Positions 1-54,200 of a DNA stretch of 64,000 nucleotides are shown in pieces (position 1 is the first letter of the stretch; each line of letters begins with the position of its first letter). Under the pieces are notes generated by a model that saw nothing but the letters and a program-made list of their open reading frames with translations, ran no database searches and had not been told where the DNA came from. Location of the stretch: the NCBI GenBank assembly GCA_976551045.1, contig CDPCPM010000037.1:34224001-34288000 (forward strand), written 5' to 3'. The stretch comes from Glaucostegus cemiculus (taxonomy: Eukaryota). The position numbers and the translations under genes were made by a program.

Positions 1-170
1 TTCTCTGCTACCTAGACTAATTTGCTTTCTCTCTTCCTCAATTCTGATGAAGGGTCTTCAACCCAAAAGATTAACTATTTCTCTTTCCACAGATGCTGCC
101 TGACCTGCTGAGTTTTTCCAGCATTTTCTCTTTTTATTTTAGATTTCCAGCATCTGCAGTTTTTTTAAAT
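1..170 (+). mobile_element. Penelope-like element terminal repeat fragment with a degenerate hammerhead core
   Basis: CTGATGA at 44-50 followed by AGGGTCTTCAACCC-AAAA, then the family block ccacagatgctgcctgacctgctgag...ttccagcatctgcag. Confidence 0.7.
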
Positions 171-3785: not shown

Positions 3786-3911
3786 ATGCCGGAGGTGATC
3801 ACGGTGCAGGAATTTATCCACGAGACCCTGGAGGATCACAGCTCGCCGACGACCTCCTCGTTCACCACCAGAATGGGAAACTGCAGGAACACGGTGGCTG
3901 CACTGGAGGAG
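3786..3911 (+). CDS. ASAP1-like: ASAP-family Arf-GAP, coding exon 1 (MPEVITVQEFIHETLEDHSSPTTSSFTTRMGNCRNTVAALEE)
   Basis: ATG at 3786 (aaaATG) inside a CpG island. 126 nt ending GAG|gtaaag. Peptide matches the ASAP N-terminus (ASAP1 MPDQISVSEFIAETTEDYNSPTTSSFTTRLHNCRNTVTLLEE, from memory). Confidence 0.95.
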
Positions 3912-11415: not shown

Positions 11416-12204
11416 GTGACGCAGCCGTGACACATTGCCACTACTGTTTGGGGATGTATGGACAACTCCCATCCTTTGCAGTTTTGTTCAAGCTCACCCA
11501 AACCCAGTCTACATCTTAATTTTCTGAGCTAAGATCCTCTCATTTATTATTACAGCTGTCTCCTTTTCCATTAACCTAGTTTTTTCTAAAAGTTAAGTGT
11601 CCTGAAATATTTAATCCCCAGCCTTGGTCACTTTGTAGCCATATCTTGTAGTGGCTTTCAGATCATATTCATTAATAGTTGTGCCATTAATTCATCTACC
11701 TTGCTTTGAATGCAATGTGTATTCCAAATAAAGAGCTTTCAATTTCGCCTTTGATTCTTTTTTTTCCTTGCTTTTACACTAATTAGAGGCATATTTTTAT
11801 GTCTGTATCCTTTGTCCCTTCCTGACAGATTCTTGTTATCACTGCCCATTTCACTATCCTAACTACCATTCTGTCCTTTAACTTTGGAAAGTTAACCTCA
11901 ACAGGACTGCCCCTCCCTCCTATCCCTAGCCATTTAACTTTATGTCTTATCTACAGTCCTAGTTATTCAATTCCTGAGGACACTGGTCCCAGCCCAATTC
12001 ATCTGAAGCCCTTTACAACACAACAGCTCCTTTTACCAATATTGATGTCTGTACTCTGTAAATTAAAAGCTCTTTCTCCCACACCAGTTTTTGAGCCACA
12101 CATGCAACTATTTGATTTTATTAATCTAATGCCAATTTGCACATGGTTTGGGTAGTAATCCAGAAATTATAACTTTTTTGAAAATTGAAATTACAATCTG
12201 CAAA

Positions 12205-12440
12205 TACTATAAATCTGAAATAAAAACAGAAAATGCTGGGAAAACTTAGCAGGTTCAGCAGCATCTTTGGAATGAGAAGCTATTAATGTTTCTGTTGTAA
12301 GGATTCCCAGATGTGAATTGTATGGAAAGGGAAACCATTAATGTTTCAGGTCTGGGACCCTTCATCAGAACTGAGTGTAAAGAGAAAGAGTTGACATTTC
12401 AAAACAGTTAACACTTTCCCAGTTCTGATGAAGGTTCCCA
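12205..12440 (-). mobile_element. Penelope-derived fold-back element with hammerhead core
   Basis: Minus strand CAGTT-CTGATGA-AGGGTCCCAGACCT-GAAAC-ATT (12373 to 12340). Inverted copy at 12420-12439 with a 19/20 match. Confidence 0.75.
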
Positions 12441-13350: not shown

Positions 13351-16139
13351 CTGGAAGTCTAAAATTAAATAACATTTATGGAATTTTAGCTTAGATGGGA
13401 ATCTTAGTTGGCATGGACCAGATGGGCTGAAGGAGCTGTTTCTGTGCTGCATCACTCTATGAATCGCACAGCAAGCTCATCAGAATTAGAAAATCTAAAG
13501 ATCAGGTAGAAACTGAACTTGATATCGATATAAAAAAAATTGGGAAATGTGCTGCTCCAGAGTAGCCAACAAATCTGGAAACATTTTCAATGTCAGGTGA
13601 TCTGTAGCTCCAGAATTTTCAATAAATTGGCGAGAGTGCTCTAGTCTGGTCCTCAGTTCTCCCTCATGGCAATGCACCTTTGTATTTGCACAAATCCGAG
13701 GTAGTACAATTTCAAATGATTGAACTAATTACTATCACTACATAATAATCCTATTGTGTTTCCATTGTTCGTTTTGTAGTGTGAACGTCACTGCATGTGA
13801 TAGTTGACATCAGCAGCACAGTGCAATAGATTTCAAATATTTCTTTACTTCCTATCTTTTCATCCCCTCTCCTTTTACCAGGATGTGTATAGATATTTTT
13901 TAAAACATGCATTCACGGAGAGTGACATTTAGCAGACAGCTCCATTGAAGGTTTAGCATTTAAATACTTCTTTTATACAAATTGCTTAGTCCGACTCTGC
14001 TCGGTAACTAAGGAATGTCACATAAGGAGAAACTACAAGTACCATTGAAATATCCTTTCTTCTATTTGTGCTATTGAGATGTAATTTATTGCAGTAGAAT
14101 GAACACCTACTTTCACTGGTTATTGCAAGTTGCTGTGCTCTTTTTCATTAGTTTTATTTTTCTTCTGTAATTAATTGACACTGGCAGCCAAAACAGAGCA
14201 TTATCAGTTCAGATATCACACTTTGTGAATTAGACAGATTTGAATACTCCCTGCTTCCAGCAATTCCATAGGGAGCCTATTTCTATTGATTCATCAATTA
14301 CTTGGTAAAATCATATTTCCAATAACTATAGTGAGGGCAGGGACAAGTATGGATGTGAGGAGCTGTGCATAAAATCATTGGTGCTCCTGTTGAATTTAAT
14401 ATCAGGACTTTGTTAAGTATGTTGTTATTTCCTTTCTCTAGATGATCAGATAGGCTAGCAGCTGGGAGGAAAAGTCAGTGGTTTTTAGCTATAGTCAACT
14501 GGGGATGCTCCCCAGAAGCTGGAAAAGATAGCAGCTTAGTGGGTGAGTATGGGGAGGGGGCTTTCACATGGAAATCAAGGAGGAAGGGAGGGAGAACTAC
14601 TTTTGAAAACAGGACAGAGACCTGCATATCAACCATTGCTGGAAAATTTGTGGTTAACATTTTTTTGCAATGCATTATGATCACATATTGCAAATTTTAT
14701 TATTTAGTTTACTTTTCAATATGCAGGTTAGAATCCTATAATGTACCAAAGACCCTGATTTCTTTTTCAAGATCAAATTGGATGGTATACCTCGGGCTGA
14801 TGTATCATCAGCTGGATGAATGACTGAATACTACAGTTTACATCAATGTTGCAGTCTCTTTGTTACATACTAATTGCCTACCACGTTCCCATATTTATTG
14901 TAAACCATAACTAGTTTAAATCGCCTATTCTTTATATTTGCCCAATCAACAGTGTATTTATAAAAAAAAATTCTGCAGCTACTGAAATATATAACCATTA
15001 ATTGCTCTCAAATGAAATTGGGGTTTGCAAAATATGTTGCAGATTTTTTTTAAAGACGTTGCATTTAAAGTGATTATTGTTAGCATGCAGGTGGCTGATC
15101 AAGTGAATGGAGAAAGTTGCCTTTTGGGATCATAAGGTTGATTGATTCCACAAGGTAAATAGCTACTAGAACAACATCAACATTATTCCTGTAGCAATGC
15201 AAGTAGAAAACAATAATATTTTCCAGTTTCATCATTAAAATGTTTAAACATTAGGAAAAATAAAACATGTATTTCCATGGCATATTTCATAATCTTAGTA
15301 TATTTAGCTATACTTTACAGCCACTTTAAAAAGATCGACACTATTTTAAAGGAGGTAACACACTAGATACTTTGTACAGAGCAAAGTCCTACAACTATAA
15401 TGAAATAATTTTTTTAATTTTGAATTTAGTATAGGACTTGAACCCAAGTTCTGGCTCAGAGACTAGGATACCAGAATGACCAAGTGTAGCACATAAGTTA
15501 TGTATAAAACCAGGATTTTGTGTATGAGACTTGGTGATAGACAATGTTGTGAAAATTAATTATATGATCATATGTTTGTGGACCCTGCTATGTGCAAATA
15601 CACTGTTTACATTGCACCCCAACAGTGACTACACTTCAAAAATACTTTAGCTGTAAAGTGTTCCAAAATCATGAAAAGTTTTTATTAGATGTCACAACAA
15701 CACTCCTCCACTCTCTTTTAGTATTGTTGATCTGAGCCTTAACCAGCCTGCTGCGAGGTTAATTGAATAGCTTTACATCACAGGTGTCTCTGTGGGAGAA
15801 TTGGCCTTCTGAGACACATCTGCTTGTTAGGATGGCTATTGTCTTGTAGGTTGCTTCTCTGTCATTTGTTCAGGCTAGCCCAGGTATGCGAACTACTTGG
15901 CATTGGTAGCAAATAAAGAGGGGCCTAGCCTTGCAGTTGAAGTCTTGAAAAGGAATATTACTACATAAATACAATCTCTTTTTGTTTCTTGTCTCTTTAC
16001 ACCATTCAAAAGCAATTAGTTATTTTTGATTAATTCTCTGATTTTTGTTTTCCGATAGTGATTCTGCAAACAACATTTTCTTCTCGTAGGTACACAAAAA
16101 ACCCCTCAAAAACTTGTTTGTTTGTTGGCTATATTGGAA

Positions 16140-17500
16140 CAGTTCTTATTTCAAGCCTATTCTGGCAGAGCCCGTAATTCTTTCTCTGCTACATCAATGA
16201 GTACAATGATGCTGCCTGCGGCACTTGTGCAGAACTCATCAATTTCAACATCTTTGCCACCATCTTCCACTCTCCGCTCAAATTAACCTAGACTATCTCT
16301 GGCCCTTCTTTTTCTGGATCTCTTTCTCCTTCTCAGGAGACAGACCTGCCACTGACTTCCACAACAACTTTAACTATACCTCTTTCCACCCTGCCTCCTG
16401 TAAAGATGCCATCCCTTTTTCTCACATGCATTTCCTGCACATCTGCTGTGAGCCCACCCCCCCTCCACCCAACCTCATCCTATACCCAGCAGGGCAGAGT
16501 TCCCTTGGTCCTCACCTTTCACTCCACCACCTTCCACATCCAACACGTTATCCTTGCCATTTCTGCCAACTTCAACATGATCCCACCACCAGTCTTCCCC
16601 TCTCAACCCCCTGCCCCAATCCTTTGGCTTTCCACTCCCTTCAGGGCTCCCTGGTCTGCTCGTCCATCCCCTGGCACTTTCTCCTGAATTCAAAGAAGAT
16701 ATAGCACGTGTCCCTTCATCTCCTCCCTCATCATCCAGGGACCTCAACACCCTGCACCTCTTCCACACTGTTCTGCTGCATTTGGTACTTACGATGTGGC
16801 CTCTCAACATTGGTAAAACCAAGCGTAGACAAGACAACGGTTTTATAGGGCACCTTGAGCTTCCAGTCGTATGTTATTTTAACTCTCCTTTCCACTTCCA
16901 TGCTGACTTGTCTGTCCTCCACCTTCTCCATTGCTAAACAGAGGCCAAACACAATTTGGAAGAACAACATATTCCGTTTGAATAACTTGCAGCCCAGTGG
17001 TCTGAATATCAAATTTTCCAATTTTGGGTAACCCGCACACCCCAGTTCTCTCCTCCCACACTCACTCGCCTGTTCATCTACTTTTCTTCTCCCTTTGTTC
17101 ACTTTTCCCATCCCCTGCCTCTACTTAGTTCCATTTGTCCATCATCTCTTCCCCATCCCGTTCCACTTATCACCCACCCGTCTATATCCCAATCCCCCTA
17201 GTATTAGTATTGGTTTATTATTGTCACTTATATCGCAGTACAGTGAAAAATCGTCTTGCATACTGATCATACAGGTCAATTCATTACACAGTGCAGTTAC
17301 ATCGAGTTAGTACAGAGTGCTTTGAGGGAGTACAGGTAAAAACAATAACAATACAGAATAAAGTGTCACAGCCACAGAGAAACAAGTACTGCTACGAACT
17401 GTCAATCTTTCCTGTTTCTTCTCAGTCCTGATGCACCTTATGTCACCTTACACCTTTTGCCTCCACAGTTGCTGCTTGACCCACTGTGTCCTTCCAATGT
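16140..17500 (+). mobile_element. Decayed Penelope-like retroelement (RT C-terminus, GIY-YIG, 3' terminal repeat), interrupted by a Rex tail at ~17205-17385 (-)
   Basis: FHPASCKDAIPFSH..HIC, RVPLVLTFHSTTFHIQHVI, CCIWYLRCGL.NIGKTKRR (GIY-YIG-like) and LEEQHI.FRLNNLQPSGLNIKFSNF. Confidence 0.85.
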
Positions 17501-24875: not shown

Positions 24876-25477
24876 TTCTACTATCTCAGCTCATTTTTTA
24901 TCTGGTCACTTAGACTTAATAGACTATTTGATGAGAAAACCAGTAAAATCTTTACCAAGATTTTTATATTGTTATGTATTCTCAAACACGAGACGAGAAC
25001 AAATACCTTCAATCTTTAGTATTTCTCAAAAAATTCCTAGAGTCTAGTGTAGTCAGTGCAAACCATGCTAAATTTTCTCAGCCTTTGCTGTTGAGACACA
25101 TGGATTGCACACTTTAATATCATCCAACAAACCTTGCACTCTGTGACCATCTTGAGAACTGTTCACTGCACAAAGGAAAGCCAAAACTCAGATATAACAG
25201 CAAGATCCAAAGATATTCCCTCTGATAGCTGGGAAAACTCTTGCCCGCTACTGCTTAGTGTGGAGTCACCATGAAGAACCCAGACTGAGACCCGCAAGTG
25301 AGTCAGCAAGAGAGTATGCTTCAACCTGCATAAAGGCAATGGACCTGAAGCCACAGTGGAAAGGTTTGCTGATTATATATCAAGAACTTGCCCACAGCAC
25401 TGCTAAGAAATACTTACCCACTAACTTGTATCTCCTTCCCTCATCTCAAAAAATTCACTCCGGTTTATCTTTCTGTT

Positions 25478-26050
25478 TTAAAGACAGAAAATGTTGGAAA
25501 CACTCAGCAGGTCAGGCAGGATCTGTGCAAAGACAAACAGTTAATTTTTCAGATCAAAAATTCTTCGTAAGAACTGAGAAAGAGAGGGAAAAATTAGTTG
25601 CAGAGAAGATGGGGAGAAGGATGGATGGGACATAGGGAATATGTGTGATAGATTAAGGCTAGGGTTACTTCCAATAATTAGCTTTCTCTATCAATATTTG
25701 AACAACAATTTTTGCTTTGTCATCTGTCTGAGCTTATTAGGATATTTTTATTTCTTCCCCTGTATGTTAGCACACCATGACCTGTTCTTTGTGACACATG
25801 ACACTTCTCTGTCACTCTGTAACTGCTCATTCCCATAAGGTCCTCAATCTTTCGCACATCCTTCCTTTGTCCTATCCATCCCTCTCTTCTCTGCAACTTA
25901 AAACTAACAATTTTCCCTCTTTCACAGATCTGATGAAGTGCCTTTGACCTGAAATGTTAACTCTGTTTCTCTTTCCACAGATGCTGCCTGATCAGCTGAA
26001 TCTTTCCAGCATTTTCTGTTTTTGTTTCAGATTTCCAATTTCTGCAAATA
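25478..26050. mobile_element. Penelope-derived fold-back element: minus arm ~25478-25650, plus arm ~25845-26050 with a degenerate hammerhead core
   Basis: The two arms are reverse-complement homologues. CTGATGA at 25930-25936 and GAAA at 25951-25954. Confidence 0.75.
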
Positions 26051-32939: not shown

Positions 32940-33095
32940 TAGCAAAGTGCTAGGCACAACAGCAGGTCAGGCATTACCTGTGAAAGGAGACATGTCTGAG
33001 ATTGTTCGTCAGAACTAGGAAAGAGAGAAAACAAATTAGTTTTCAGTCGCAAAGGAGGATGGGTCAAACAAAGGGAATATCTCTGATAAAGTGAG
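32940..33095 (-). mobile_element. Penelope-derived terminal repeat fragment
   Basis: cagcaggtcaggca...gtcagaactaggaaagagag...caaagggaatatctctgata, homologous to 25500-25650. Confidence 0.6.
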
Positions 33096-36895: not shown

Positions 36896-37489
36896 GCATT
36901 GGTTTATTGGTTTCCACTTTGATATCATTGTACATTTTGCTTGTTTGGGGCAAGAAGAAATGGCAACCAAATTTACAGACTGACAACATTGAAAGTATCA
37001 TTAATATTGAGTACCAACAAATTATGAGTAGTAATAAGTTGGAAGAACAGATGAAAAACATGGCATATGCAAATGTAAGATGGTATATTCTGGTTAGAAA
37101 ACATGCACAAAATAGTTGAATATTTAGGCCTACATTTTATGGCTAGTGCTATGGAAAACTATAATCAAAATTAATTGTAAATCCACATAAAAATTCAGTC
37201 AGAACATACTTAAAGTAGTATATTCAGACGTGGGTTGCAGTCAAGAAGAAAGATATTGAGGCGACTGATGGTGCAGGCCAGATTGGCAAGTATAACCTAC
37301 ATTCCCAATAAACCTACACTAGAAGAAAGCTATGTGGAAATTTGGAACTAATGTTTTTTCACTATAAACCATAACATGTCTTCAAATGATTGTGCAAATT
37401 CTCAGACTTTTGGTCACTTTTATTTACTATCATACTTGTAAAGGGTGATTGATGTTTTAACAGACTGGTGTTTTCATTTCTTTCTCTAG

Positions 37490-37562
37490 ACTTTAGACAA
37501 GGACAGGTCTGTACTCCAGAAAATGAAGAAGGCAGTCAAAATGAGATATACCTCAGGTCAAG
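37490..37562 (+). CDS. ASAP1-like: ASAP-family coding exon 2 (TLDKDRSVLQKMKKAVKMRYTSGQ +1 nt), BAR domain
   Basis: tttctttctctag| acceptor and G|gtaaag donor. 73 nt, in frame with exon 1. Similar to ASAP1 ALDQDRTALQKVKKSVKAIYNSGQ. Confidence 0.95.
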
Positions 37563-37689
37563 GTAAAGAGCATGAGCACATCTTTAAATTTAATAACTTT
37601 TAAAAATGCTTTCAAGAATGGTTATTTTGTTATATAGATAATATGGATATATAGATCTTACAGTGCACTTTAATTCTTCCTTGAACAGA

Positions 37690-38018
37690 AGCCAATTTCT
37701 TCCCTTCATCACTTGCCTGAACTCCTTCTTACAATGGACAACTTTTCCTTCAACTCAGCTCACTGCCTTTTAGTCAAAGGTGCAGTTGCCTTCGTGGATT
37801 GTTGGATATATGGAACAGTCCATGCTGTAGAGCTGTTCAGGCCCTCTTCCTCAACTGTTTTCCATCTGTTCTCTGCAACTTAAAACATGGTTGTTTTCTT
37901 ACTTTTCCAGTTCTGATGAAGGATCTTTGACCTGAAATGTCAACTCTGTTTCTGCCAAATGCTTCCAGCACTTTCTGTTTTTGTCTTGGATTTCCTGCAT
38001 CTGCAGTTTTTTGTTCCA
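37690..38018 (+). mobile_element. Penelope RT remnant joined to a terminal repeat carrying the best-preserved hammerhead core
   Basis: ...ttagtcaaaggtgcag...gttggatatatggaacagtcc...ggccctcttcctcaactgttt, then AGTT-CTGATGA(37913-37919)-AGGATCTTTGACCT-GAAA-T-GTC-AACT. Confidence 0.75.
37909..37945 (+). ncRNA. Minimal type-I hammerhead ribozyme motif (probably inactivated by CpG decay)
   Basis: Helix I AGUU/AACU, core CUGAUGA, helix II GGAUC/GACCU (one mismatch), GAAA, cleavage triplet GUC. The helix III palindrome ACGU appears as AUGU. Confidence 0.6.
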
Positions 38019-43261: not shown

Positions 43262-43425
43262 TGGAAGAGACACAAGACTGCAGATGCTGGAATTTGGAGC
43301 AACAAACAATCTGCGAGTGGGTCATCAATGATGTAGGGTTTCAAACTGAAACATTGACAATTTCTTTCCACCCACAAATATTGCATGATCCACTGAGTTC
43401 TTCCCGCACTTTGTTGCTCCATAAT
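43262..43425. mobile_element. Penelope-derived fold-back mini-element
   Basis: Perfect 12-bp inverted repeat TGGAGCAACAAA (43295-43306) / TTTGTTGCTCCA (43410-43421) around a degenerate TGATG..GGGTTTCAAACTGAAACATTGAC core. Confidence 0.65.
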
Positions 43426-47049: not shown

Positions 47050-47575
47050 TAGATATCTGTGCATAATATTGTGATATCATAGTGATTAAATGATACAAGT
47101 TTGAATTCCACCATGGATGCTGGAGATATTTAATTCAAGTAATTAAGTATATCTGGTATTTAAAAAAGGATGGTCTCAAAAGCAATAACATTCAAAATTG
47201 CTGGATTATCATTAAAACAAATCTGGTTCTCTCTAATGCCCAACAGGAAAGTAAATCTGGATCAGCAAACAATCTGCTGGAGGAACCCAGCGGGTCTACC
47301 AACATCCGTGGGAGGAAAGGAATTGCCGATGTTTTGGGTTGAAACTCTACCATGGATGTTGGTAGACCCACTGGGTTCCTCCAACAGGTCGCGTGTTGCT
47401 CCAGGTTCCAGTTTCTGCAGTCTCTTGTGTCTCCAGCAAAGGAAATGTACTGTCCATGCTCAATGTGGCCCTTTTGATTTCTGACAACCAATGAGGGTAA
47501 CTGTCATAAACCTCCTCAGTTTGTGCACGATTAGGGATGGACAGTAAATGACATCCATATCCCATGAATGAAAGT
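47050..47575 (+). mobile_element. Old SINE interrupted by a Penelope-derived hairpin element (~47251-47439)
   Basis: SINE blocks tttgaattccaccatgg...atctggttc.ctaatg continue at ggaaatgtactgtcc...ttagggatggacagtaaatg. AGGAAA flanks the insert on both sides. Confidence 0.65.
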
Positions 47576-50619: not shown

Positions 50620-50812
50620 CAGTAAAACAAAACAGAAAATGCAGGAAACATTCAGCAGGTCAGGTGGAATTAGAGCATTGAAGAGTCTTCAAACTGAAAC
50701 ATTAACTCTGTTTCTCTTTCCACAGGTGCTGCCTGACCTGTTGAATGTCTTCAGTATTTCCTATTTATATTTTAGATGTCCATCACCTGCAGTTTTATTT
50801 TCATCTGCAGTT
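50620..50812. mobile_element. Penelope-derived fold-back mini-element
   Basis: ACATTCAGCAGGTCAGG (50648-50664) / CCTGACCTGTTGAATGT (50732-50748), 16/17 inverted match. Internal TGAAGAGTCTTCAAACTGAAACATTAACT. Confidence 0.7.
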
Positions 50813-54070: not shown

Positions 54071-54200
54071 TACTAAAATTGAAAAAGAAAAAAGAGAACT
54101 TGCAAAGCAGTATGGAATGGTACGAATTGAGGTGACTGGAGGTGAAATAGCAGAGGAAATGGAAAAAGAACGGAGGATGTTTCAGCTACAGATGTGTGAG
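54071..54200 (+). CDS. ASAP1-like: ASAP-family coding exon 6 (TKIEKEKRELAKQYGMVRIEVTGGEIAEEMEKERRMFQLQMCE)
   Basis: ttttttcttgacag| acceptor and GAG|gttagt donor. 130 nt. Carries the highly conserved EIAEEMEKERR.FQLQMCE. Confidence 0.97.

Follow-up and report, generated by a model that had tools for sequence, protein, structure and literature searches.

Can a hammerhead-ribozyme motif on the transcribed strand of an intron act on its host pre-mRNA, or is it a remnant of the mobile element that carried it there? This question is raised by a motif at positions 37909-37945 (+ strand) of a 64-kb stretch of DNA (hereafter the window). A first-pass annotation described the motif as a minimal hammerhead in Penelope-derived ends, sense to an ASAP pre-mRNA and ~350 nt after an exon. 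On re-reading the sequence, we found the motif quoted exactly and located 347 nt from exon 2, which ends at 37562. Our analysis indicates that the motif very probably derives from an old Penelope-like element (PLE) that has suffered an internal deletion and lies in intron 2 of an ASAP-family gene; it would be the element's 3′ end, where the hammerhead is carried, and is predicted to be an inactive relic, likely without consequence for the host transcript.

The focal copy is best described as a decayed minimal type-I hammerhead. No catalytic-core base is altered (C3-A9, 37913-37919; G12-A15.1, 37934-37937), helix I consists of four Watson-Crick pairs (37909-37912 with 37942-37945), and an extra A at 37920 lies between positions 9 and 10.1. 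The cleavage triplet occupies 37939-37941, with the nominal cut after 37941. Helix II (37921-37925 with 37929-37933) is damaged, its first pair (10.1-11.1) being G·U and 37923/37931 an A·C mismatch, and positions 15.2-16.2 are U-G (37938-37939), without a palindrome. The full hammerhead layout originally claimed for this copy is not confirmed, given these defects in helices II and III and a predicted fold no better than that of shuffled sequences.

The host is a gene that we take to be of the ASAP family, its exons having been located with short motifs. The first coding exon lies at 3789..3911 (+ strand, ends approximate) and the 73-nt exon 2 at 37490..37562 (+ strand); further exons were placed at 54156 and past the window end, with an ArfGap exon downstream at G000:C37:34305560 on the + strand, and a Pfam search with the 24-aa exon gave no match. 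Exon 2 shows no differences in the contigs of four runs, all from other organisms, which cover exon 2 and the repeat and leave the unique intron uncovered. The identity of these contigs, from four differently coded organisms, extends over 37488-37562 at the DNA level; the RNA status of the runs is a guess.

Origin of the focal copy

The motif is contained in a PLE 3′ end (pLTR/tail) at 37870..38015 (+ strand), which has a short deletion after ~37953. Adjoining this end, at 37665..37860 (+ strand), is a reverse-transcriptase (RT) relic of the same PLE that carries stop codons and one frameshift, covers the palm, and stops just before the catalytic-aspartate motif. The relic was missed by our DNA profile and recovered by protein searches, with a tblastn E value of 9.6e-9 against the whole window and an empty reversed control. 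Its position directly upstream identifies the focal copy as an internally deleted PLE, and we infer that a deletion of ~1.3 kb joined the two parts.

The same arrangement recurs across the family. Among the fetched loci, 55 of 61 ORF ends have a hammerhead within 900 nt downstream, as do 13 of 16 in unselected DNA, where the spacing is 242-411 nt (this second set overlaps the 61 fetched ends). Locus L064, reached via genome copies with an intact motif, preserves the order RT, GIY-YIG, stop, ~280 nt, hammerhead; its endonuclease frame returned 53,435 first-look candidates genome-wide, and two L064 frames had no match in Pfam. GIY-YIG relics also lie upstream of close relatives of the focal copy (L197, L200, L203 and L204). 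The nearest named proteins to the family ORF are ray and shark proteins, which makes an elasmobranch the likely source of the genome, and the related ray/shark protein P0004 scores above the cut-off for GIY-YIG and below it for RVT_1. A CX2-5CxxC linker precedes GIY-YIG in P0001, P0004, P0005 and L064 and has been deleted from the focal copy. At the family level, the hammerhead therefore lies within a terminal repeat, that of an element encoding RT and GIY-YIG, and the Penelope origin first proposed is borne out by the RT relic at the focal copy, the GIY-YIG relics in its relatives, and the 55 ORF ends.

One may postulate instead that the copies are not truncated PLE ends and that the short repeat represents a non-autonomous element in its own right, of SINE or retrozyme type. 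Most copies are only 70-160 nt long, and animal retrozymes have been described as PLE derivatives and reported from one chondrichthyan (bioRxiv 10.64898/2026.07.22.740005). The 5′ ends of family copies are ragged, however, and copies including the focal one continue into GIY-YIG and RT sequence; moreover, same-strand core copies within the gene lie 0.8-8.5 kb apart, unlike the tandem units with a hammerhead in each that define non-LTR retrozymes. We consider this reading hardly credible, and for the focal copy it is already largely refuted by the RT relic.

Truncated PLE ends of this kind are dispersed through the window, where 17 profile matches were found, compared with none in the reversed control of the 1.11-Mb search; the repeat is thus not a product of chance. 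The first-pass annotation listed five other copies, and related text is present at all of them, but each is more damaged than the focal copy. In the one at 6..163 (+ strand), G12 and the palindrome of helix III are gone; this copy precedes the first coding exon by 3.7 kb. Two antisense pieces at 12196..12386 (- strand) include the listed copy 12340, with helix III broken and helix I weakened; the sense copy at 25912..26048 (+ strand) has an intact core and a broken helix II. The copy at 43329..43416 (+ strand) is the closest same-strand neighbor of the focal motif and has a broken core with no intact 5′ half, and the last listed copy, at 50625..50794, belongs to a head-to-head inverted pair in which the + arm begins inside the core and the core 5′ half is not intact. 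Of the 17 window matches, 7 are on the minus strand, and most of these had been omitted from the first-pass list, including one at 25470..25593 (- strand). Another antisense copy lies at 32960..33045 (- strand), with the 3′ half of its hammerhead deleted, and a head-to-head inverted pair of 5′-truncated ends forms a hairpin at 47255..47425. A second, longer PLE relic at 16100..17500 (+ strand) retains RT, GIY-YIG to ~17030, and a hammerhead ~400 nt later that is partly deleted and belongs to a lineage with an A9-to-C change. An Rfam scan returned no hammerhead family at E<=5, a blank that is uninformative, as a motif lacking helix III may escape a model. We also observed a long imperfect inverted repeat at 1195-1617 that is unrelated to PLE ends and is possibly a DNA-transposon remnant.

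The repeat family and its lineages

Beyond the window, the profile recovered 272 fragments in 1.11 Mb (~250 fragments/Mb; reversed control 0), as well as 111 matches in 45 arbitrary stretches taken from large contigs and totaling 450 kb (reversed control 0). Extrapolation gives a genome total of ~7 x 10^5 fragments when the two arms of an inverted pair are each counted, and the high copy number originally suggested is upheld. Head-to-head pairs, a known feature of PLE insertions, number 45 among the 272 matches.

We propose the following history for these ends. In the source elements the hammerhead lay ~240-410 nt past the stop of an RT + GIY-YIG ORF, as seen directly in the loci above. Published work on PLEs suggests that a tandem transcript of such an element would have been cut weakly after N17, either as a dimer or assisted by the element's protein, and that insertion would have started at the 3′ tail and in most cases stopped early or folded back. 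Reverse transcription from the 3′ end of the element, together with frequent truncation at the 5′ end and head-to-head inversion, would then have scattered what we extrapolate to be several hundred thousand ends, which would subsequently have decayed, chiefly at CpGs.

The hammerhead is apparent at the family level. The majority base at each core column (C3-A9, G12-A15.1, U16.1, H17) is that of the hammerhead core, and the majority consensus has the full core, an extra A after position 9 (present between 9 and 10.1 in 96% of 97 copies), helices of 4-5 bp, and a loopless helix III. In the focal lineage, positions 15.2-16.2 read CA in 22 copies, TG in 19 and CG in 7; this reciprocal CpG decay points to an ancestral C-G and hence to a palindromic helix III without loop 3. 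Decay of a loop CpG (TG 28, CA 16, CG 6) likewise fits the loop of the ancestor proposed in the first-pass annotation. These two parts of that ancestor stand, but its C11.1 does not in the focal lineage: here position 11.1 is skewed (TG 49 : CA 5, compared with 24 : 30 in the other lineage; p 3e-7), so that the source element of the focal lineage likely already had G10.1·U11.1. As a 28-letter pattern, the proposed ancestor had 0 exact matches in the genome, and a relaxed intact pattern had 23, none with the proposed loop.

Two main lineages can be distinguished by loop length and by the closing pair of helix I, which is U-A in 31 copies and C-G in 17 (n=58); this swap is a single event between lineages. 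Among 19 hand-picked copies, two helix I pairs and no helix II pair change on both sides, a score that 10 of 500 shuffles also attained, and the lack of two-sided change in helix II makes the covariation within the family thin. A genome-wide Pfam search for GIY-YIG revealed a second PLE family that has no blast match to the focal repeat. It has intact 740-aa ORFs with RT and GIY-YIG and its own minimal hammerhead ~880 nt past the stop, with the same core as the focal family and different helices, which speaks for the fold having been under selection in source elements. Together with the helix I pair swap, this second family argues that the source elements had a genuine minimal type-I hammerhead, as had been proposed. 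The second family is young and clustered, with members at L134:4229-6448 (-), L135:5331-7550 (-), L048 and L059; a tandem array with a period of ~189 nt lies at L134:850-2758, downstream of the young PLE ORF.

Other lineages of the focal family carry fixed core changes, A9-to-C in 21 of 108 copies and U4-to-A in 16 of 108, each tied to its own cluster; in the parts of the literature consulted we found no description of how either change affects cleavage. The A9-to-C, U4-to-A and U11.1 lineages have all amplified widely, an A9-to-C example being the hammerhead at window positions 17410-17497. A younger subfamily (L067-L069, L071-L078 and L083) is ~7% from its majority and has an intact core and helix II, with an A·C mismatch in helix I.

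Predicted activity and the host transcript

Folding predictions suggest that the focal copy neither folds nor cuts and is most likely inactive. Its helix II pairs have predicted probabilities of 0.00-0.01 at -0.1 kcal/mol, compared with 0.37-1.0 at -5.8 for four intact copies, and the stable helix II with a G10.1-C11.1 pair expected of a working copy is missing. Relative to shuffled sequence the focal fold has a z of +0.66, although two intact controls are likewise weak by this measure (-0.3 and -0.7). The U·G helix III has no loop, and a dimer partner would thus be needed; the palindrome for such pairing is absent, and the closest same-strand copy is 5456 nt away and itself broken. Of the 272 profile matches, 108 span the motif, the remainder being truncated; 14 of these have an intact core, three pass lax fold tests and one passes a strict test, while the focal copy fails both. 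Fully intact hammerheads thus amount to 1 of the 108 sampled copies. The focal copy presumably kept its core by chance, as these 14 did, and has lost the palindrome of helix III along with the stability of helix II.

This interpretation should be weighed against several observations. The core bases and the 4-bp helix I of the focal copy are all preserved, and natural hammerheads with a very weak or mismatched stem II are able to cleave, which counts against inactivity (PMC3088659). In addition, pooled conservation is higher in core columns than in tail columns (0.892 vs 0.859, p=0.002), an excess that may be explained by lineage differences and anchoring of the profile; within clusters, core conservation is above that of the tail in four of seven and below it in three (156 of 379 matches usable, partly core-selected). 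The published activity of intact relatives is itself low: intact PLE minimal hammerheads had no activity as monomers and low activity as dimers (PMC4209133), and that of an anole PLE cleaved only when protein was added, was not required for in vitro insertion, and gave no read ends at the position of its cut (PMC11167929). A hand count of 45 head-to-head pairs showed no pile of cleavage-defined 5′ ends at the cut, with 6 of 90 ends in columns 68-75 around it (three exactly after the cut) and 23 of 90 at the 5′ strand of helix I, near the acceptor-like site described below.

An alternative scenario is one in which the focal copy has been domesticated as an intronic ribozyme that cuts the ASAP pre-mRNA and tunes its splicing or output, in the manner of the conserved amniote intronic hammerheads, which are thought to be retroelement-derived (PMC6155905). 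The sense strand, the distance of 347 nt from an exon, and the intact core and helix I are all consistent with such a role. We nevertheless regard it as extremely unlikely, given that helix II is predicted to be unformed, that the loopless U·G helix III needs a partner whose closest candidate is broken and 5.4 kb off, and that an intact core is seen in 14 of 108 copies and sense placement is at chance level. Inside the ASAP-family gene, family matches are divided into 12 sense and 11 antisense; in a pooled set comprising this gene and forty 10-kb flanks of other genes' ArfGap exons, assumed to be intronic, we counted 51 sense and 55 antisense (p 0.77), with core-covering copies at 26:28. There is no sign at the present sample size of selection for or against sense copies, and the sense orientation to ASAP is uninformative because orientation is even. 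A strand bias suggested by the initial five arbitrary stretches, which were split 1:9 and lacked a gene reference, dissolved to 48 plus of 111 in 45 stretches. The significance for the host transcript implied by the first-pass annotation is accordingly not supported, in view of the even orientation, the unformed helix II predicted for this copy, and the lack of a nearby dimer partner. For the ASAP gene there is most likely no consequence, the focal copy being one among several hundred thousand decayed ends. A close relative (81%; L205) lies in the sense orientation in an intron further along this gene, at G000:C37:34309922-34310042, and likewise has a GIY-YIG relic upstream.

Intron-like layout and comparison with known systems

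A pyrimidine run common to the family ends in an acceptor-like AG within the 5′ strand of helix I (37895..37910, + strand, in the focal copy); this AG follows a 90% pyrimidine stretch in 46 of 59 copies. At the other side of the spacer, a donor-like GT is found at the ORF stop in 49 of 61 ends and in 14 of 16 unselected ends, where three different final codons all have G as the letter directly ahead of the stop. The two sites are 240-410 nt apart, with examples at window positions 17017-17030 and 17410-17430 and at L107, L020 and L072. Against an intron are the composition of the spacer, which is 80% pyrimidine throughout, the fact that the stop codon itself supplies part of the donor, and the absence of the donor from the second PLE family. 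No spliced genomic copies were present among 55 and 13 ORF-to-motif units (overlapping sets). A branch-point-like motif was considered and set aside, being present in one subfamily and absent from the closest relatives of the focal copy. On this sequence evidence, a spacer that is an intron, as in Drosophila virilis Penelope, is a serious possibility that falls somewhat short of an even case. The stingray gene model P0002, named for a host gene, consists of the family PLE ORF and continues, beyond the point where that ORF usually stops, with residues unrelated to it; the donor-like site may be in use there.

If the acceptor-like site were functional, the focal copy could act on its host solely as a cryptic 3′ splice site, through the pyrimidine run and the AG at 37909-37910. 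The frequency of this AG and the intron-bounded appearance of the family favor this scenario. An antisense excess, expected if such acceptors were harmful, is nevertheless absent, and none of the four joints listed for the contigs of the four runs is at 37910, weak evidence given that the contigs come from other organisms. We judge this role very unlikely, and the inactive relic remains our preferred reading of the focal copy.

A broader proposal would be that the shark/ray family keeps the spliceosomal intron of Drosophila Penelope, from stop codon to helix I, with spliced and unspliced RNAs bearing different hammerheads, and that the lineages with fixed changes at U4, A9 or 11.1 (jointly over half of the copies sampled) underwent their amplification once catalysis had weakened. 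We think this unlikely as a whole; if true, mobility would rest on the structure of helix I and the splice site, not on self-cleavage.

The focal motif is a real motif of an already published class, and the focal copy is most likely an inert relic of it. Minimal type-I hammerheads were described in the pLTRs of metazoan PLEs by Cervera and De la Peña in 2014 (PMC4209133), with examples from fish, coelacanth, Xenopus and reptiles; the supplement files of that paper that were searched contain no mention of shark, Callorhinchus or Leucoraja. We found no published description of this shark/ray family in listings of openly accessible papers. The present family shares with the published motifs a type-I topology, a helix I of 4-5 bp, an additional base separating 9 from 10.1, a palindrome without a loop at 15.2-16.2 in the ancestor of the lineage, a location in a PLE terminal repeat, and dispersed single copies by the thousand. 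It differs in having a helix II of 4-5 bp rather than 7-8 and, in the focal lineage, a likely G10.1·U11.1 in place of the conserved G-C, and the focal copy is decayed (PMC4209133).

Among PLEs more generally, the order of RT and then GIY-YIG at the C terminus, with a CX2-5CxxC linker as seen in P0004, recalls the Neptune-clade EN+ elements (Craig et al. 2021, PMC8557442), as do 5′ truncation, an inverted 5′-truncated partner, and a one-sided tail; the linker, the single feature that would suggest membership in the Neptune clade, is also found in Nematis (PMC8557442). In D. virilis Penelope the intron's 3′ end is at helix I of the hammerhead (PMC4209133), and the present family is similar in its acceptor-like AG in the 5′ strand of helix I and in its donor-like site at the ORF stop. 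Unlike in Penelope, the putative intron would be 240-410 nt rather than 75 bp and would begin at the stop codon (PMC8557442). A hammerhead in the pLTR and a two-position tail are also features of another vertebrate PLE, PAc from Anolis carolinensis (Frangieh et al. 2024, PMC11167929), which, unlike the focal family, is active, has been assayed, and belongs to the Poseidon clade. Whether PLE hammerheads are needed for mobility is an open question in both of these studies (PMC8557442, PMC11167929). The family described here constitutes a large natural mutation series bearing on this question, and its amplified lineages with altered cores, together with a possible intron ending at helix I, make the need for a hammerhead testable in a vertebrate.
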